8,078 nt of DNA. It comes from a virus (lineage: Duplodnaviria; Heunggongvirae; Uroviricota; Caudoviricetes). Under the pieces are notes generated by a model. It made no database searches. It saw nothing but the letters and a program-made list of their open reading frames with translations, and was not told the origin of the DNA. Shown here in pieces: positions 1-8,078 of the stretch. Position 1 is the stretch's first letter; every line of letters starts with the position of its first letter. The stretch lies in the IMG/VR virus record IMGVR_UViG_2585427795_000004. One strand, 5' to 3'. The position numbers and the translations under genes were made by a program.

Positions 1-556
1 CCCCCTCGCCATCAATATCTTCCGGAAAACGGTCATAATCCGTCAGCGCGACGCATTTATAATCTGATGAGGACATGATATTGACTGACGGCCAGCCGAT
101 TTTCAGGTAGTTACCAGCAAGGAATGTTCTGTCATAAACGTTGTTGTCATTTTTGTTCGGACTCAGGCGACTGACCACTTCCGGGCTGACGCGAAACGTT
201 CTGGCGAGTCGTTTTTTGGAGTGTTCGCGGGCTTTTTCCTCCGTCATCTGTATGATCAGCATATCAGCAGGATCGCAAATCACGTTGTAAATCACCCAGC
301 CGTCAATCAGGCCGATAGTCTTGCCGGTTCGTGCCGGGCCAACAAATATCACTGCGTCGTATTCACGCGAGGCCAGGCAGTTCATCGGCTCAATAACATA
401 CGGTGCCACCAGCGGATCCCACGGGACTGAGTTCCCTGCCCCCATGGGCACCCGCATATACTGAGCAACGGCATCAGCAACCCGCATTCGTCTCGGTGCG
501 CGAAGGATATAACCTGAATCGGTTCGTGCTGCCTTTGCGGTTTCCTGATTCAGCAT
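1..556 (-). CDS. Phage terminase large subunit (lambda gpA-like), N-terminal 185 codons; gene continues past the window start
   Basis: Open minus-strand frame from ATG (complement of 554-556) to the window edge with no stop. Translation MLNQETAKAARTDSGYILRAPRRMRVADAVAQYMRVPMGAGNSVPWDPLVAPYVIEPMNCLASREYDAVIFVGPARTGKT... has a P-loop-like GPARTGKT and resembles the gpA N-terminal ATPase region (recalled, not searched). Its ATG overlaps the upstream gene's TAA as TAATG. Confidence 0.85.
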   Translation of the reverse strand, partial: MLNQETAKAARTDSGYILRAPRRMRVADAVAQYMRVPMGAGNSVPWDPLVAPYVIEPMNCLASREYDAVIFVGPARTGKTIGLIDGWVIYNVICDPADMLIIQMTEEKAREHSKKRLARTFRVSPEVVSRLSPNKNDNNVYDRTFLAGNYLKIGWPSVNIMSSSDYKCVALTDYDRFPEDIDGEG

Positions 557-1050
557 TACTCCTCCCGCTGTAATTCCTCCTCATCATCCGCACCTGCTTC
601 GGTCACCCGCAGGGCTATCTGATCGCGCAGATCATCAATAATGGACTGAACACGGCTCACAGCGGCAGGCTGCAGACCGCAGTCACGTTCAAGAATATCC
701 GGTAATGTCTCCAGCACCTGCACGACCGCTTTTGCCCAGATGGCAAACTCCCGTCTGACATCACTGGCCGGAATGAGTTGTGCCGTTTCCTGTTCGAACT
801 TAAGACGCTCACGTTCAGACTGATACCAGGCTTTGCGCTCATGCGCGTCCATTTCGCCTTCTGCAACCGGCGGTGGTAATGCCAGAAATGCCGACACAAT
901 ATCAACCACCCGATAAAGCTTGAGGTTGCTTTCATGCCCCCCTGCAACGGGTAGATTTTGCAGCCTTGCCGCAGCAGTCTGGCGATGTACACCTGACAGA
1001 GCCGCCAGTTGACTGATATTCAGCGTCAGATTTTTTAACTCTCGATCCAT
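556..1050 (-). CDS. Phage terminase small subunit (Nu1-like, N-terminal HTH DNA-binding domain)
   Basis: 164-aa ORF; ATG at 1050 preceded by GGAG with 5-nt spacing. N-terminus LNISQLAALSGVHRQTAAARL is HTH-like and the acidic C-terminus is typical of TerS. It sits directly upstream of, and is translationally coupled to, the large subunit, and about 175 bp downstream of the predicted cos. Confidence 0.8.
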   Translation of the reverse strand: MDRELKNLTLNISQLAALSGVHRQTAAARLQNLPVAGGHESNLKLYRVVDIVSAFLALPPPVAEGEMDAHERKAWYQSERERLKFEQETAQLIPASDVRREFAIWAKAVVQVLETLPDILERDCGLQPAAVSRVQSIIDDLRDQIALRVTEAGADDEEELQREE

Positions 1051-1153
1051 ACCCGCTCCAGAATGTTTTAAACATGCATCTTGCGAACAACTTTAGGCAA
1101 ACGGTGTTAGTGATGAACAAAAAACAATCAAAATCGACACCACAAAAATAAAA

Positions 1154-1185
1154 CCACTGTAATATCAATACATTACAGTAGTGGT
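1154..1185. promoter_or_regulatory. cosB-like element: inverted repeat ACTGTAAT(1156-1163)/ATTACAGT(1172-1179) enclosing an IHF-consensus match tATCAAtacaTTa (1163-1175)
   Basis: The dyad symmetry and the match to WATCAANNNNTTR are read directly from the sequence. Position between predicted cosN and the terS start matches where lambda cosB carries the I1 IHF site and Nu1-binding R elements. Confidence 0.45.
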
Positions 1186-1224
1186 GATGACGAATGAAAT
1201 TTCAAAAACTAGCCTTTTTCCGCG

Positions 1225-1236
1225 ACGCTCCCGCCC
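1225..1236. other. Predicted cosN; putative 12-nt cohesive end (minus-strand GGGCGGGAGCGT)
   Basis: Minus strand reads ...CGGGTCCTCCCGGTGGGGGGGGCTGCCACG-GGGCGGGAGCGT-CGCGG..., which aligns with my memory of lambda cos ...CGGGTCCTTTCCGGTG...GTTACG-GGGCGGCGACCT-CGCGG.... Orientation and distance to terS are as in lambda. Exact nick positions are inferred. Confidence 0.45.
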
Positions 1237-1602
1237 CGTGGCAGCCCCCCCCACCGGGAGGACCCGACAGCCTGACAACCGTGACGAGCATCTGAAACAG
1301 AGCTTTACATAATGGCATGAGGATAATTCAGAAGGACATCACAGCATGCCCACACAAATTAGTGTGAGTGTCCTGTTTCTTACTACGCGCAGGACTGACG
1401 AGCATGAGGGGAAAATACGAGAACCGAAATGCCTTATCTTCAGAAATGCAGCCAGCATCCGAACTGGACGATATTGTAAATTCACCTAAATACGAGGCAT
1501 TGCTGTAGTTGAATTACAGTACTGTATTAGCCTGACAGTGACAGAATACGATATTGACTCTGTCACTTGTGAAATGGTCAGAATGGTTAGCAGTTATGGT
1601 GA

Positions 1603-1809
1603 TCAATCAACCACCAGGGAATAATCCTTCGTATTCTTATCGTGCTTCACTAACGCTGCCTCAATTGCCCTGAATGCTTCCAGAGATACTTGATGTTCTA
1701 TACATGCAATTATAACATCCGGGTAACTCATCGAAATGGTGCTATTAAGCATAGTTTTTACACGAACCTGCTCTTGGGAGGGGGCCTCAGTACATTGATC
1801 TTTATGCAT
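1603..1809 (-). CDS. Hypothetical small protein (68 aa), function unknown
   Basis: ATG at 1809 preceded by GGAG about 8 nt upstream (minus strand catGGAGcgacaaaATG). No recognisable family. Divergent from the YdfO-like gene across a 272-bp intergenic region. Confidence 0.4.
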
Positions 1810-1993
1810 TTTGTCGCTCCATGCGTTTGTTCTTCACTTGTCGCTAAAAATATAACTTCAAATCTTTGAGCGTGGAAGTGTGGAAGTCACTGCGCGTTGA
1901 TCTTGCATGCATCGGTCGTTTGTTTCCCCCCTGGCATATCAGAAAAACCAGGTTTTATAGCGGAATCAATACTATGTATTTACCACCTGACTT

Positions 1994-2022
1994 TTGACAT
2001 AAATCATCAATAAAACATATAA
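1994..2022 (+). promoter_or_regulatory. Candidate sigma70 promoter for the YdfO-like gene
   Basis: TTGACA at 1994-1999, 17-bp spacer, ATATAA at 2017-2022 (or TATAAA with an 18-bp spacer), about 60-75 bp upstream of the start codon. Sequence-only prediction. Confidence 0.35.
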
Positions 2023-2096
2023 AGGTCAGACCAGATTGAAACGATAAAAACGATCTTGCAAACTACTCGCCCTCATATCATATGGAAGGTTTATCT

Positions 2097-2507
2097 ATGG
2101 ATCAGGTAGTCATTTTTAAACAAATATTTGATAAAGTTCGAAACGATTTAAACTATCAATGGTTTTATTCTGAGCTAAAACGTCACAATGTCTCACATTA
2201 CATTTACTATTTAGCCACAGAGAATGTTCACATTGTATTAAAAAATGATAATACAGTGTTATTAAAGGGCCTAAAAAACATTGTGTCTGTCAAATTTTCA
2301 AAGGATAGGCATCTTATAGAAACGACCTCTAATAAGCTGAAATCCAGAGAGATCACATTTCAGGAATACAGAAGAAACCTTGCTAAAGCAGGAGTTTTTC
2401 GGTGGGTTACAAATATCCACGAACAAAAAAGATATTACTATACCTTTGATAATTCATTACTCTTTACTGAAAACATACAGAGCACATCACAAATGTTTCC
2501 ACACTAA
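2097..2507 (+). CDS. DUF1398-family prophage protein (YdfO/YbcV-like); AT-rich moron
   Basis: 136-aa product from the ATG at 2097 ([13 protein letters not shown]...), which has a GGAAGG Shine-Dalgarno 8 nt upstream. The track's ATG at 2082 has none. Similarity to Qin-prophage YdfO is recalled from memory. The gene is visibly AT-rich and rich in ATA/AGA codons compared with its neighbours. Confidence 0.65.
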
Positions 2508-2826
2508 ACCATAACGTCCGGTTTCTTCTACCCCAGCACCGGACTGGCTGACATGAAGAGCAACCACACGTTCAGTTCACGCGTTAATAACCCGGTGAAC
2601 ATCGTTTTTGATTATTCCCCCACACTCGCGCAGAAGGAGTTCCCCGTCAGGCTACAGTCATAATTAATGCAGGAGTACAGCGACGATACAGCGCACAGAA
2701 ATAAATCAGACATCCATTGACTTCATAAAGACGGTGCATAGCATCGACAGGAGTAATTGCGTAAATTGAACTCTTGGCACACTTTAGCCACCGGCGAATC
2801 TTCAGCGGATTATCCTTGGCCGGTTT

Positions 2827-3291
2827 TTATCTGAGGCATTGCTCACGAATGTATAGCTGTGCCCCTTCCAGTTGTTTTTGCATTATTGTCAGTCGCGCTC
2901 TGAGGGTGAAATAATCCCGCTCAGCGGTGTCTTCCAGTCGGGGGGCGGCTGCATTATCCACGCCGGAGGCGGCGGTGCCTTCACGCACGGACGAACAGAC
3001 TGCCTTGATGCGCAACCGACGATGACCAGCGGCAACATCATCACGCAAAGCATCATTTTCAGCCTTCGCATCAGCTAACTCCTTCAGGTATTTTGCATCG
3101 AGTGCAGCAACATCACGCTGGCGTATCTGCATGTCAGTAATGATTGCGGTCGCCTGGTTGAGTTTTTCCGTCACATTATCGCGTTGCGCTTTGTAGGTAA
3201 TGGCATTATCACGGTAATGATTAACAGCCCATGACAGGCAGACGATGATGCAGATAACCAGAGCATAAATAATCGCGGCAACTCTGCTCAC
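2827..3291 (-). CDS. Rz: Rz i-spanin (inner-membrane spanin subunit)
   Basis: Translation from the GTG at 3291 ([38 protein letters not shown]...[31 protein letters not shown]) is near-identical to lambda Rz as I recall it. The GTG overlaps the endolysin TGA stop (GTGA). The track's TTG start at 3306 is probably an over-extension. Confidence 0.9.
2889..3071 (-). CDS. Rz1: Rz1 o-spanin (outer-membrane lipoprotein), embedded in the +1 frame of Rz
   Basis: 60 aa, [20 protein letters not shown]... with lipobox VGC and a proline-rich mature region ([14 protein letters not shown]). Near-identical to lambda Rz1 and wholly embedded in Rz, as in lambda. Confidence 0.85.
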
Positions 3292-3821
3292 TGCTCTATC
3301 CCCCAACAGGCTAATGCGCTCTCCTGATCACGACGAATAACCTGACCGTAACAGTTATTTGAACGAAGGCGGCAATCGCGCCCCCTGTCCTTAATCCACC
3401 AGCGAATCGCCTCGCAGGCACCTTTACGATCACCTGCATTCAGCCGCTTATAAAATGTCGACGGAAAACACTTACCGGGGCCAATGTTATAGGGACAAAA
3501 TGACGCGATACCCGCTTTCTGGGGTTCGGTCAGCGGCACTTTAATATTGCGCTCCACCCATGCCAGCGCCTTATCGCGTTCAATGGCATTAACCTGAGCG
3601 CATTTTTCCTTCGTCAGTTTCATGCCCGGAATAACAGGTTTACCATCCACCATCGTGGCACCACGACAGATGGTCCATATGCCGGAACCATCGCGGTATG
3701 CCGTAGTATGGTTACCCTCTTTTTCATCCAGAAACTGGTCAAGTATTTGAGGAGCAGACGCGCCTGCAGCAATCAGCGCCAGAACCGCAGCTGACAGGCC
3801 GTATTTGATTTTTGCGCTCAT
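3288..3821 (-). CDS. SAR endolysin (phage lysozyme, T4-lysozyme/GH24-like) with N-terminal signal-anchor-release domain
   Basis: 177 aa. N-terminus [15 protein letters not shown] is a Gly/Ala-rich weakly hydrophobic SAR-type segment, followed by the lysozyme E...D...T catalytic motif ([19 protein letters not shown]). Resembles the Qin/21-type lysozyme (recalled). Confidence 0.9.
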
Positions 3822-3876
3822 GGATATTTATCAGGATGCTACCAATGAAAGATACTGGAAAGCCAACTGCAAAAAG

Positions 3877-4191
3877 CTAACAACCTGTAATCGAGTTATC
3901 AGAACTGTTAATTTTTATGGTATACCGCGCCTCTGAACAGGGGCGCGTTTCTGGCAACAGCTCGTCCCCTTCACATAACCCGGCAGCAACATCCAGGAAG
4001 ACCTGTCTGATGCTCCTTCTGGCTGCTGCCTCATAAAACTCCAGCGCGGCACCTTCAACACGGTCCAGCGAGATGTCCAGGTCAAAAATTTCACCGTCAA
4101 AGCGTTTTTTGTCCCGTAACGCTAAAGTTACCGTAACTTTATTCTCAAAATTGCGGATCCCTTTCACAATCAGTTCATATTTTTGAGTCAT
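3877..4191 (-). CDS. YdfR-like small protein (DUF1327 family) located between holin and endolysin
   Basis: 104-aa ORF; ATG at 4191 with GGGGAGAG Shine-Dalgarno about 8 nt upstream. Position between pinholin and endolysin matches the Qin prophage essQ-ydfR-rrrQ arrangement. Family assignment is from memory and context. Confidence 0.6.
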   Translation of the reverse strand: MTQKYELIVKGIRNFENKVTVTLALRDKKRFDGEIFDLDISLDRVEGAALEFYEAAARRSIRQVFLDVAAGLCEGDELLPETRPCSEARYTIKINSSDNSITGC

Positions 4192-4195
4192 TGAA

Positions 4196-4411
4196 TTACT
4201 CTCCCCGTGCAGCCTTACGCTTGTCTTCTTTAATCTTGAAATAAAGGTTTGTCAGGTACGTCAGCAGGCCAAATACCAGGCTACCCAGCACACCTATTGC
4301 TGCCCACTGTGAGGGCGTGACTTTATCGAGCAGCTGTAAAAACCAGTAGCCAGCACTGCCTGCGGAGGTGCCGTAGGCAATGCCTGTTGAAATTTTGTCC
4401 ATGGATTTCAT
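4196..4411 (-). CDS. Class II pinholin (phage 21 S21-like), dual-start antiholin/holin
   Basis: [71 protein letters not shown] closely matches S21 as recalled. GGAGGTGAGG sits immediately upstream of the ATG at 4411, with a second in-frame Met three codons in (M-K-S-M). The track's start at 4468 is an unsupported N-terminal extension. Pairing with a SAR endolysin is the expected pinholin system. Confidence 0.9.
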
Positions 4412-4445
4412 AGCCTCACCTCCGCACGGAACGGATGGCATAGTT

Positions 4446-4473
4446 ATTATGTGTAGGCTTCCAGACACATCAA
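4446..4473 (-). promoter_or_regulatory. Weak candidate sigma70 promoter upstream of the holin
   Basis: Minus strand: TTGATG (complement of 4468-4473), 16-bp spacer, CATAAT (complement of 4446-4451), about 35 nt upstream of the holin start. Sequence-only, and the region is AT-rich, so it could be chance. Confidence 0.25.
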
Positions 4474-4510
4474 TCGGAGCCTTAATTGATATATATGCTG
4501 GAGACGATGC

Positions 4511-4537
4511 AATATAAAAAGCTCGCCGTAGCGAGCT
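4511..4537 (-). terminator. Rho-independent terminator downstream of the lipoprotein cassette
   Basis: Minus-strand RNA AGCUCGC-UACG-GCGAGCU followed by UUUUAUAUU: a 7-bp stem with 5 GC pairs, 4-nt loop and U-tract. Lies about 125 bp downstream of the TAG stop at 4663 and upstream of the holin. Confidence 0.6.
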
Positions 4538-4662
4538 AATAAAATGTATTTCTCTGATATTATGTTTATTTGTATTAGCTCAGACTTGACATCACAGGTT
4601 TCGTATATAGAACATCATCAAATCTGTCAGTTTGCTATGAATGAGATATAGTAATTGAAGAG

Positions 4663-5058
4663 CTAACCTCGCATGTCAAAGCCAGATTTCTGAAAATCTC
4701 TGTAGACTTCCGGATTGTTGAAGGCCGGAAATTTGGCTTTATGAGCTGCGGACTTTATCGCTTCGCAATAGGCTTTATCACCGTTACTGGTAGATATTTT
4801 TAACGCCGTGCCATCCTGAGAGAATTCCATATGCAACCTGCATTTTTTCCCTTTCCAGTTATGCGGCTCATCAAGTTTGGCATTAATTGCAGCTCTGATT
4901 CCCCGCGCTTGCGCCCCCCATTCATCCTGATCATCCCAGCGTCCTGAACTGCAACTACCTGTAGCAGTAGTTTTGTGGCAATCTGAAGGGTGTAAAGGTG
5001 TGCATCCCGCAACAAAACCGACCCAAAAAGTCAACATAACGATTTTCTTTAATCCCAC
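4663..5058 (-). CDS. Lipoprotein with a C-terminal domain homologous to TolA domain III (paralog 1)
   Basis: GTG start at 5058 with GAGGAG 6 nt upstream. Signal peptide MGLKKIVMLTFWVGFVAGC has lipobox VAGC and +2 Thr. C-terminal region ...GKKCRLHMEFSQDGTALKISTSNGDKAYCEAIKSAAHKAKFPAFNNPEVYRDFQ... shares the GKxCxLxM...GD..C...PEVY..F pattern and both cysteines with paralog 2 and with TolA-III. Confidence 0.7.
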   Translation of the reverse strand: MGLKKIVMLTFWVGFVAGCTPLHPSDCHKTTATGSCSSGRWDDQDEWGAQARGIRAAINAKLDEPHNWKGKKCRLHMEFSQDGTALKISTSNGDKAYCEAIKSAAHKAKFPAFNNPEVYRDFQKSGFDMRG

Positions 5059-5208
5059 TTCTTGCTCCTCAATCCATTAAAATCTCAGCAATAGTAGTTG
5101 TTACGTCCGCCACTGGCTCAGAGCTGACTATCCGCTAGATTTAGCTCAGTGCCGTAGTTGTGTCAGAACAAACCTAAGCCGAAACCGTTTATTACAAAAC
5201 AATAAATA

Positions 5209-5637
5209 TCAGGGTTTAAAATCCAGCACCCCATTTTGAAATACTTTATATACTTCCGGCGAAGGGGGGGCAGGTATATCAGCATTCTTTATCGCATTCA
5301 TCGCTTCACGACATAAATCGAGGTCTCCACTTTCTCTTTTAACCTCCAGTAGAAGGCCATTCGGGGCCATATGCATTCTCAGTGTACACTCTTTTCCTGA
5401 ATACTTACTCGCATCCCCGAACTGTTTTTCGATGGCGCTCTTGATTTGATGGGCATACAGACGGATATCCTCACTAACATCAGAAGTACGTTCAGATGAA
5501 CTCACATACTGTGTCTCTATTGCTTTATCGGAGTAATATGATGTACGGTCATGATAATTTGTCGATACAGCATCAGTGCACCCGATAATAATCCCACTAA
5601 TAATCAACGTAAGAATTGATGCGCTACGAAAACCCAT
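5209..5637 (-). CDS. Lipoprotein with a C-terminal domain homologous to TolA domain III (paralog 2)
   Basis: ATG at 5637 with GAGGA upstream. Signal peptide MGFRSASILTLIISGIIIGC has lipobox IIGC and +2 Thr. C-terminus ...YAHQIKSAIEKQFGDASKYSGKECTLRMHMAPNGLLLEVKRESGDLDLCREAMNAIKNADIPAPPSPEVYKVFQNGVLDFKP aligns residue-by-residue with E. coli TolA's C-terminus as I recall it (...YAGQIKSAIESKFYDASSYAGKTCTLRIKLAPDGMLLDIKPEGGDPALCQAALAAAKLAKIPKPPSQAVYEVFKNAPLDFKP), including the disulfide cysteines. Confidence 0.8.
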   Translation of the reverse strand: MGFRSASILTLIISGIIIGCTDAVSTNYHDRTSYYSDKAIETQYVSSSERTSDVSEDIRLYAHQIKSAIEKQFGDASKYSGKECTLRMHMAPNGLLLEVKRESGDLDLCREAMNAIKNADIPAPPSPEVYKVFQNGVLDFKP

Positions 5638-5666
5638 TTTTCCTCACATATGTCATATAGTAAAGG

Positions 5667-5696
5667 ATTATATATACCGTTGTTTTGGACGCTCAA
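5667..5696 (-). promoter_or_regulatory. Candidate sigma70 promoter for the lipoprotein cassette
   Basis: Minus strand: TTGAGC (complement of 5691-5696), 18-bp spacer, perfect TATAAT (complement of 5667-5672), about 30 nt upstream of the paralog-2 ATG. Sequence-only prediction. Confidence 0.4.
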
Positions 5697-6170
5697 ACAG
5701 CGAATCAGATCAAATAAAACGCACATTTGTTAACATTTACACAAAGTCTGCGTGGGATATTCTGAAAGAATATCCATAATGTGGAGAGAATCTATTGAAG
5801 TGCATGGTGCCGGGGGCCTCCCGGTGAATTCAGTACCAGCACCTGAATCCACGATTATCCCATATACCTACTCGCTGATTGCCCCTCCGCACAGGGGGAT
5901 TCACCATGCCAGTTTCTTTTAACAAACTCCCCGCAAACCAGAGAACAGTCAACCGCCTGAATTGTGAAGTATTTAAAAATTTCTCCCGCTAACTGATACC
6001 CGGCTAACAGTCTGGCGTTTTCTTTTTCAGCAACGGGAAAGCAACAACTACCACCCCCGCCACCAGCACACCGTCAGCCAGCACTGACATTATCCGGCTG
6101 CTGCAATGCCATTCACAAAAACAGTAAGCAATCACTTTTTACCGTAACAGGTGATAATCCAGATATGTAT

Positions 6171-6524
6171 CTACCCCAGATGAGTAATCCGAAGTTCATC
6201 CATACCACAGGTCCTGGCTATTCTGTTGTACTCCTGAACAAGAGCAAATAATTCTGAATTAGCAACCATGAACTCATCGCAAACCCTCTGTATAGCATCA
6301 CTATTCAGAATAATAACGTCTCTTCCCGAAAGACGATCAGGAGCACAGAACAAAACTGTCAAACGGCTGAAGGCCTTTGCTCGTGCTGCATTGACTATAT
6401 CAATACGCTGCCTAAGGATGAAACACCCCGACGCCTCATCAATATTCACTCTACCCACACCATATGAATGATAAATATTTAATGCTGAAAAAACCATTAG
6501 ACCGTATAACAAACACTCAATCAA
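6171..6524 (-). CDS. Hypothetical protein, no family recognised
   Basis: 354-nt ORF, but the 6524 start is TTG with no convincing Shine-Dalgarno, and the first in-frame ATG (codon 10) also lacks one. An overlapping plus-strand ORF (6268..6471) exists. It may be a real moron, a gene remnant or non-coding. Confidence 0.3.
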   Translation of the reverse strand: MIECLLYGLMVFSALNIYHSYGVGRVNIDEASGCFILRQRIDIVNAARAKAFSRLTVLFCAPDRLSGRDVIILNSDAIQRVCDEFMVANSELFALVQEYNRIARTCGMDELRITHLG

Positions 6525-6634
6525 TACTTAACAGAACTTTTATTTTTGACAAACATATAATGTTTTCAACAATATCCTGAGCCAGGTATATTCCAGTATA
6601 AGGCTCTGCCGGAAGGAATCTGGAAGAATGAATA

Positions 6635-6711
6635 TGGCGCGCTGTACTGGATTCGAACCAGTGACCGATTGCTTAGAAGGCAATTGCTCTGTCCGGCTGA
6701 GCTAACAACGC
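6635..6711 (-). tRNA. tRNA-Arg (anticodon UCU, reads AGA/AGG), phage-encoded
   Basis: 77-nt minus-strand cloverleaf GCGTTGT-TA-GCTC-AGCCGGACA-GAGC-A-ATTGC-CTTCTAA-GCAAT-CGGTC-ACTGG-TTCGAAT-CCAGT-ACAGCGC-G-CCA. All four stems pair, T-loop is TTCGAAT, and CCA is encoded. Confidence 0.85.
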
Positions 6712-6745
6712 TGAATACCGATAATGGACCGCCATCGGGGACCCG

Positions 6746-6757
6746 CCCCCCCCCCCC
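6746..6757. repeat. Homopolymeric C12 (G12 on the minus strand) tract in the inter-tRNA spacer
   Basis: Directly counted: 12 consecutive C at 6746-6757. Confidence 0.9.
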
Positions 6758-6818
6758 GCACCAACAACCCTGTTATCGTGTCGTCTGCTCTTCCTGATAA
6801 GCTCATGGCGGTTTGTGA

Positions 6819-6894
6819 TGGTGGCCCTTGCTGGATTTGAACCAGCGACCTGGCGATTATGAGTCGCTCGCTCTCACCACTGAGCTAAAGGACC
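6819..6894 (-). tRNA. tRNA-Ile2 (anticodon CAU, ileX/ileZ-like, reads AUA after lysidine modification); formally Ile/Met ambiguous from the anticodon alone
   Basis: 76-nt minus-strand cloverleaf GGTCCTTTAGCTCAGTGGTGAGAGCGAGCGACTCATAATCGCCAGGTCGCTGGTTCAAATCCAGCAAGGGCCACCA, closely resembling E. coli ileX as recalled. Anticodon loop is CTCATAA and CCA is encoded. Confidence 0.85.
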
Positions 6895-6927
6895 GGGTGA
6901 TCCTACCCACGTAATATGGACACAGGC

Positions 6928-7794
6928 CTAAGCGAGGTTCTTGTTTTCAAATTGTTCCGGACTGAGGCCGCCACACCAACTGTGCCGCCGCCACCGATTG
7001 TAATCACATTCGATATAATTAAACACCGTTGCCCGCATTATTTCCCGGCTGATAAAGTGTTCTCCATGGATACATTCCACTTTCAGCGAATGAAAGAAGC
7101 TTTCCACGCAGGCATTATCGTAGCAGCAACCTTTTGCGCTCATACTTCCACGCAGATTATGCCGCTTCAGTTGCGCCTGATAATCTGCTGAACAGTACTG
7201 GCCTCCACGGTCCGTGTGAACGATAACGTTCCGGGGCCTCTTACGCCGCCACAGCGCCATCTGCAGGGCATCGCAGGCCAGTTGCGCCGTCATGCGTGGC
7301 GACATTGACCAGCCAATAACGGCACGTGACCACAGGTCAATGACCACTGCCAGATACAGCCAGCCTTCATCTGTACGTAAGTACGTGATGTCTCCTGCCC
7401 ACTTCTGGTTCGGGCCACTGGCGTAAAAATCCTGCTCCAACAGATTTTCTGACACAGGCAGGCCGTGTGCGCGGTAGCTGACCGGGCTGAACTTCCGGGA
7501 GGCCTTTGCCCTCAGTCCCTGACGGCGCAGGCTTGCCGCCACGGTTTTTACGTTAAAGGGGTAACCCTGAGCACGCAGTTCATCCGTCAGGCGTGGGGCA
7601 CCGTAACGCTGTTTTGACCGGGTAAAAGCCGCGAGGACAACGCTGTCGCAGTGTTGGCGGAACTGCTGACGCGTGCTTATCCTTGTCCGCCGCTGACACC
7701 ACGTATACCAGCCGCTGCGGGCCACCCGGAGCACGCGGCACATTGCTTTGATGCTGAACTCAGCCTGATGTTTTTCAATAAAGACATACTTCAT
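6928..7794 (-). CDS. insF: IS3 transposase OrfB (InsF; DDE integrase-type catalytic domain)
   Basis: 288-aa product [32 protein letters not shown]... matches IS3 InsF as recalled. Its ATG overlaps the orfA stop (ATGA). The frameshift motif CCAAAAGG (complement of 7823-7830) lies just upstream. Confidence 0.95.
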
Positions 7795-8078
7795 TTCAGG
7801 CGCTTCGCGAAGTATGTCGCGGCCTTTTGGAGGATAGCCAGCTCTTCATCCCGTTCTGCCAGCTGGCGTTTGAGACGTGCAATCTCGGTAGACATCTCCA
7901 GTTCACGTTCAGAAGACGTCTGCTGATTTTGCTGTTTACTGCGCCAGTTGTAGAGTTGTGATTCATACAGGCTGAGTTCACGGGCTGCGGCAGTAACACC
8001 GATGCGTTCAGCAAGCTTCAGGGCTTCACTGCGAAATTCAGGCGAATGCTGTTTACGGGGTTTTTTACTGGTTGATAC
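7791..8078 (-). CDS. insE: IS3 OrfA (InsE, HTH transposase subunit), 5'-partial because the start lies beyond the window end
   Basis: Minus-strand translation from the window edge ...[95 protein letters not shown] matches IS3 InsE as recalled. Confidence 0.9.

Follow-up and report, generated by a model that had tools for sequence, protein, structure and literature searches.

A canonical IS3 element beside the tRNA-Ile2 gene of a Qin/mEp460-type lambdoid prophage, 3 bp from its mature 5′ end

We analysed a window of 8,078 nucleotides, the whole stretch of tailed-phage DNA recorded as IMGVR_UViG_2585427795_000004, in which the right end of a canonical IS3 element adjoins late-region DNA of a Qin/mEp460-type lambdoid prophage of E. 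coli. The element stands in the orientation of late transcription and enters 3 bp upstream of the mature 5′ end of a phage tRNA gene; it is probably the product of a recent, strain-specific transposition into the leader of the tRNA-Ile2/tRNA-Arg pair. Comparison with uninterrupted relatives places this insertion point beyond the late promoter and its terminator, a position that bears both on whether late transcription would survive the insertion and on what would happen to expression of the tRNAs.

The IS3 element and the late region beside it

The IS3 portion occupies positions 6898-8078 on the minus strand, with its right end adjoining the tRNA; these 1181 bp (of 1258 bp) show zero mismatches to the complete 1258-bp IS3 of NZ_CP104788.1 (L025), and PGAP labels copies of this kind ‘IS3-like element IS3 family transposase’. 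On the plus strand the junction reads ...ctaaaggacc GGG TGATCCTACCCACGTAATATGG..., from which the terminal repeat begins at 6898; read as ...GGACC GGG TGATCCTACCCACG..., it likewise puts the first base of IS3 at 6898. The right terminal inverted repeat (about 39 bp, 6898-6936, minus strand) is identical to that of complete copies and agrees with the left end of the complete copy at 28 of 39 positions. TGATC opens both ends of the element, and complete copies in two further genomes have the same TGATCC start and AAGATCA end. Some BLAST matches seemed to carry IS3 up to 17 bp beyond 6898; these were chance likenesses of other flanks, and 6898 was retained as the end.

Two overlapping reading frames fill the element. 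The larger, orfB (6928-7794, minus; 288 aa), encodes the DDE/rve catalytic part of the transposase, with Pfam matches to rve (97.8 bits), rve_2 and HTH_21; orfA (7791-8078, minus), which matches Pfam HTH_Tnp_1, has its first four codons absent, the window ending 12 nt into the gene. They overlap as ATGA, and a −1 frameshift motif, CCAAAAGG, lies within orfA at 7823-7830; this combination of a helix-turn-helix orfA, an overlapping rve orfB and an A AAA G-type frameshift motif is that of the IS3 family. Because of the positions of orfA and orfB and their minus-strand orientation, 6898 is the right end of IS3 and the transposase genes are aimed at the tRNAs; the left end is predicted to fall at 8155. 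The earlier note on this DNA had IS3 starting at 6898 and the tRNA 5′ end at 6894 with GGG between them, and had the transposase genes facing the tRNAs: all of these coordinates and the identity of the element hold, and both transposase genes are on the minus strand, co-oriented with the tRNAs and lysis genes. The match of the window to the described features of IS3 and of these tRNAs is no chance match.

The gene next to the element (6819-6894, minus) was called by ARAGORN as a tRNA with anticodon CAU, and scores 69.4 bits against the Rfam tRNA model at 6822-6894. It is a homologue of ileZ of Stx phages, where homologues carry that label; 67 of its 76 positions agree with K-12 ileX, and identical sequences in L001 and in E. 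coli BKQWHE (L003) have the PGAP label tRNA-Ile. The C4:G69 and C5:G68 pairs, which are determinants for TilS, are both present in it. By its sequence features the CAU tRNA is assigned an Ile2 rather than a Met identity, with a predicted reading of AUA through lysidine modification. Downstream of it in the phage pair is tRNA-Arg (anticodon UCU; 6635-6711, minus; ARAGORN, and Rfam tRNA at 68 bits), whose sequence is labelled tRNA-Arg in relatives and which is probably co-transcribed with tRNA-Ile2. A literature search on ileZ returned nothing relevant.

The 107-nt spacer between the two tRNA genes was also read for a separate tRNA-Arg promoter, a candidate that was rejected when no −35 element was seen. 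The spacer contains a homopolymer of 12 C (G12 on the late strand) at 6746-6757; its length varies from 5 to 13 C in relatives, so the tract is hypervariable or prone to sequencing error.

The remainder of the window, positions 1-6897, belongs to a lambdoid prophage of Qin/mEp460 type and represents its late region, read on the minus strand. In addition to the tRNAs it contains a DUF3927 ORF, an STnc100-like RNA, two TolA-like ORFs and genes for holin, YdfR, lysozyme and Rz, together with DUF1398, a 68-aa ORF, DUF1441 and the start of the large terminase gene. With L003 this region shares 99.6% identity, and it resembles many other genomes as well as phage mEp460_ev081; none of them has the IS3. 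The 31 differences from L003 are mostly clustered at 1245-1713 (the mosaic regions compared being 1196-1810 versus 2000-6897).

Several features of this region are worth recording in their own right. The window is a mosaic, in which the allele of the 68-aa ORF (1603-1809) is that of the lineage L014-L023 and the lysis genes are those of the lineage of L003 and L027-L046. The match to STnc100, an Rfam small RNA, is full-length (5748-5938, minus; 110 bits against a gathering threshold of 47) and lies between the DUF3927 and TolA-like ORFs. The latter two, at 4663-5058 and 5209-5637 on the minus strand, carry the TolA C-terminal domain (PF06519) and occupy the moron slot between the tRNAs and the holin gene; the 142-aa TolA-like protein is very widespread (40,386 index blocks), and is found as well in prophages with a DUF1133-type Q and a different packaging module.

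The uninterrupted site and the origin of the junction

In uninterrupted relatives, which are Qin/mEp460-type prophages, the order is Q antiterminator, pR′, tR′, a promoter-like module, CCC and tRNA-Ile2; a Q gene, a lambda-like pR′, a terminator immediately upstream and CCC at −3 to −1 were found in all 24 of the fetched relatives that share the tRNA. The empty site of L003 measures 143 bp from the Q stop codon to the tRNA, and comprises, in order, TTGATT-16-TGgTAAATT, a AACGATGGG element, a GC-rich hairpin with a T-run, and 42 nt ending in CCCCC. Because the −10 box and AACGATGGG of the relatives align, at equal spacing, with lambda pR′ and its sigma-dependent pause element, the empty site has a Q-dependent late promoter followed by tR′. 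The earlier note had expected such a promoter upstream of the tRNAs, and all 24 relatives bear this out. The Q of these relatives belongs to family PF03589 and not to the lambda Q family; a comparative paper on pR′ contained nothing relevant. In one relative (L014, 3783-4049 of UWXJ01000001.1) the called Q product has 88 aa instead of 273 aa, which suggests that its Q gene is disrupted.

Mapped on these relatives, the insertion point falls inside the C run, about 100 nt past pR′ and about 33 nt past tR′. Given a layout common to 24 of 24 relatives, IS3 would thus be downstream of both pR′ and tR′, and between the upstream promoters and the tRNAs and late genes. The GGG at 6895-6897, which reads CCC on the late strand and fills positions −3 to −1 relative to the tRNA, is native sequence, since CCC precedes the tRNA in every one of the 24 empty sites; this fits a 3-bp target duplication, of which it is presumably the right-hand copy, with the left-hand one expected at about 8156-8158. 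Three IS3 copies examined elsewhere have AGG/AGG (L025), TTT/TTT (L026) and no matching duplication (L024). On the side of tR′, pR′ and Q the empty-site flank reads GGGGGCAGAATAATAACGG, and the left junction predicted for a simple insertion is ...GCTGGGTAAGATCA at 8142-8155, followed by GGGGGCAGAATAATAACGGTCCGTAATTAATTCCGCAATAAAAAACCCGC, the side of tR′, pR′ and then Q.

Searches for the exact 40-nt right junction came up empty in 5,426 complete E. coli genomes, as they did in species-representative genomes, metagenomes, IMG/VR and phage records; the predicted left junction likewise occurred in no collection searched. Because the junction is absent from these genomes and the other collections, we regard the event as rare and probably recent. 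Exact-protein look-ups with the 142-aa TolA-like protein, the 68-aa ORF product, lysozyme and Rz returned empty sites only, with Q directly upstream, and a k-mer comparison located every 31-mer of the window in other loci save those of the junction and of one silent SNP near 6055. This tRNA occurs 154 times in the fetched loci, never with an insertion sequence at −3 and only once with IS3 nearby, so there is no sign that IS3 targets tRNA genes.

Insertion sequences are present elsewhere in the relatives, with IS1 and IS5-type transposase genes just downstream of Q and IS3-family transposase genes inside the late or lysis region. One relative (L026, 3001-4258 of NZ_CP191548.1) has a complete IS3 with its TTT/TTT duplication between a four-tRNA cluster (Ile-Lys-Thr-Gly) and the holin gene, in late-gene orientation.

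The junction could instead be a rearrangement breakpoint, at which a deletion or inversion between IS3 copies removed the Q/pR′ side and detached the tRNAs and late genes; we consider this unlikely. Prophages of this type are IS-rich and mosaic, and IS3-mediated rearrangement is not rare, one of the three copies checked (L024) having unmatched flanks; moreover, the left junction lies outside the window and its predicted form is in no collection. The right junction is absent everywhere too, however, so these absences reflect only that the source genome is missing from the collections, and the right flank is empty-site sequence to its last base, CCC included, as in a simple insertion. An assembly artefact, that is, a repeat-induced misjoin of an IS3 copy to the tRNA, is scarcely credible: although IS3 is multi-copy (E. 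coli genomes have a median of 4 matching places) and no other DNA shows this junction, the terminal repeat meets the native flank with its very first base and with no base of either out of place, and a misjoin within the repeat makes no new junction between an IS end and unique DNA, so that a real IS3 end must abut the tRNA.

Transcription of the late genes and tRNAs

In the layout of the relatives, the pause site of pR′ and the terminator tR′ both precede the IS3 position, so that polymerase arriving there would already be modified by Q. Such polymerase is resistant to terminators of both the intrinsic and the Rho-dependent kind, a resistance that Yang and Roberts reportedly described in 1989. 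Prediction of intrinsic terminators over 6400-8078, the IS3 part included, returned none. After induction, and given Q and pR′ beyond the element, Q-modified polymerase would cross the 1.26 kb of IS3 and the lysis and packaging genes would still be expressed, leaving the late region lengthened rather than severed.

The earlier note had held that the insertion severs the late transcript and that the prophage is defective. By the above analysis severing is unlikely, and we think it improbable that IS3 blocks Q-dependent late transcription, leaves the lysis and morphogenesis genes silent and makes the prophage defective from this insertion. In the inferred layout the element does stand between pR′ and every late gene, and reporter results indicate that it is polar for ordinary polymerase: when a promoter was set deeper than 150 bp within IS3, no expression was detected beyond the element, and the final 50 bp at the right end, which contain a pause site and a rut-like element, cut expression 1.9-fold (PMC12095673). 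This polarity would be met, however, by a polymerase that is already Q-modified and terminator-resistant, in an element with no predicted intrinsic terminator. Induced cultures have yielded Stx2a phages of which 13 genomes have IS629, itself of the IS3 family, downstream of stx2 (PMC4587872). Against the claim of a defective prophage, the window has intact late genes: its holin, YdfR, lysozyme, Rz and DUF1441 (small-terminase) proteins do not differ from the products of intact annotated genes of L003, with the holin, endolysin, spanin and terminase genes at 4196-4411, 3288-3821, 2827-3291 and 556-1050, respectively, on the minus strand.

The tRNAs are a different matter. Immediately upstream of tRNA-Ile2, the relatives have a module of TTGC[A/G][A/G], 17 nt, TATTAT and 9 mostly G+C nucleotides, which end at the 5′ end of the tRNA (TTGCGG-17-TATTAT-9 nt in the uninterrupted relatives of the window). 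Among 149 loci, which represent several unrelated upstream contexts and 47 distinct upstream sequences, TTGC and TTATTAT recur with constant spacing; the 40 nt just upstream of tRNA-Ile2 are common to phiP27, an Stx2a phage and other prophage types whose contexts are otherwise unrelated, and the likeness among them begins at the TTG of the module. In L003 the module, recognized by sequence conservation, is at 12894-12934 on the minus strand, which would lie past 8155 relative to the window. In K-12, TATAAT precedes the mature end of ileX by 10 nt. The module's G+C-rich stretch resembles the discriminator of stable-RNA promoters.

We infer that the phage tRNAs have a promoter of their own, active in the lysogen, from which transcription would start 1-4 nt ahead of the mature tRNA; the basis is conservation among related modules together with one sentence on a different phage, an Stx2a phage for which Sy et al. 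give a mapped start site driving the tRNAs. By comparison with empty sites, IS3 sits between the −10 box of the module and tRNA-Ile2. The tRNAs thus appear to have been split by IS3 from a promoter of their own, which the earlier note had overlooked.

The comparison with empty sites supports the view that the tRNAs are cut off from their upstream promoters, pR′ and the proximal module both being displaced by 1258 bp. In the lysogen, both tRNAs would lose their own promoter, and what expression remained would come from the right end of IS3, through its outward promoter P3R or through read-through, and would be weak at best. The P3R motif (TTGGTG ... CAATTT; 6949-6979, minus) faces the tRNA, and 55 nt separate the end of its −10 box from the tRNA 5′ end; PMC12095673 describes it, with reference to Charlier 1982, and PMC8860574 calls it a strong outward promoter. 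A second outward promoter-like signature at this end (TTTAAT-15-TACAAT; 6997-7023, minus), also located here, is described in PMC12095673 as well. In the reporter experiments of that work, however, no promoter activity was detected from the 150-bp right end of wild-type IS3. Of the suggestion in the earlier note that read-through or a hybrid promoter could rewire the tRNAs, what stands is that an outward promoter has been published for this end; its activity is contested. Lower expression of the tRNAs is therefore likelier than rewiring through P3R, which is possible.

The IS3-derived leader retains CCC at −3 to −1, and processing by RNase P would probably still work. In silico, the GGAUCA of the IS3 tip together with CCC can pair with GGUCC of the acceptor stem; the predicted acceptor pairing falls from about 1.0 to 0.06, with an energy difference of about 2 kcal/mol. 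We take this modelled competition between leader and acceptor stem as a weak hint.

The displaced tRNA promoter, provided that it is present beyond 8155, would now fire into the left end of IS3. This raises the prospect of a promoter swap, in which IS3 landed at the start site of a constitutive, stringent-type phage tRNA promoter that now drives the transposase genes from outside, while the rare-codon tRNAs are expressed only from the outward promoter of IS3 or after Q antitermination. We hold such a swap to be quite improbable; were it true, this would be a hyperactive IS3 copy, and AUA and AGA tRNAs otherwise expressed in the lysogen would become dependent on induction.

Improbable too is the proposal that IS3 serves as a mobile promoter, with constitutive expression of the AUA and AGA tRNAs from P3R or by read-through of the transposase genes, and that the insertion is kept since the host benefits. 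P3R, at 6979-6949, does face the tRNA and is termed strong (PMC8860574), it is named as the basis of the argE activation reported by Charlier 1982, and the IS3 genes and the tRNAs are co-oriented. The wild-type 150-bp right end, by contrast, was inactive in the reporter and has a repressing pause element, and the native tRNA promoter was probably already active, so that nothing would be gained. Moreover, the leader derived from IS3 is predicted to compete with the acceptor stem, and the occurrence of the insertion in 0 of the 5,426 complete genomes gives no sign of selective spread.

The meaning of the insertion is mainly one of housekeeping, as one more insertion sequence in a prophage late region, of which there are many among the fetched relatives. 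The locus would offer a natural test of the passage of Q-modified polymerase across IS3, and a natural knock-down of phage AUA and AGA tRNAs that appear to have a lysogen-active promoter. The most useful by-product is the evidence for phage tRNA genes travelling with their own promoter; for annotation, a conserved promoter-like module and these genes form one cassette.

Comparison with known systems

Compared with canonical E. coli IS3 (IS3 family, 1258 bp), the element in the window has the same terminal repeat, orfA/orfB arrangement, frameshift motif and rve catalytic domain, and its sequence is without any difference; the insertion site alone is new. The IS3 mobile promoter described for activation of argE (Charlier, Piette and Glansdorff 1982) has the same right end, with the same P3R motif facing a promoterless gene. 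In the argE case, however, a silent gene gained a promoter, whereas the tRNA in the window appears to have lost one.

The IS629/IS1203v insertions in the Stx2 prophages of O157:H7 are likewise IS3-family elements in the Q-dependent late region of a lambdoid prophage, and IS1203v beside stx2 has been linked to altered toxin expression (PMC8136144). Those elements stand in or downstream of stx2 or in coding genes; the IS3 in the window precedes the entire moron and lysis block, with its end at −3 of the first tRNA gene.

The closest likeness of the surrounding DNA is to the lambdoid late regions with tRNAs (ileZ-argN-argO of 933W/Sp5, phiP27; Qin; mEp460), whose counterparts among the relatives share Q, pR′, tR′, tRNA-Ile2, tRNA-Arg, morons, holin and endolysin. 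The tRNA-proximal promoter module of the relatives is common to Stx phages, in which the tRNA-driving start site was mapped; in the window, IS3 stands where the Q/pR′/tR′ part would be. The locus is an ordinary strain-specific IS insertion in a well-known type of prophage late region, and not a new kind of system.
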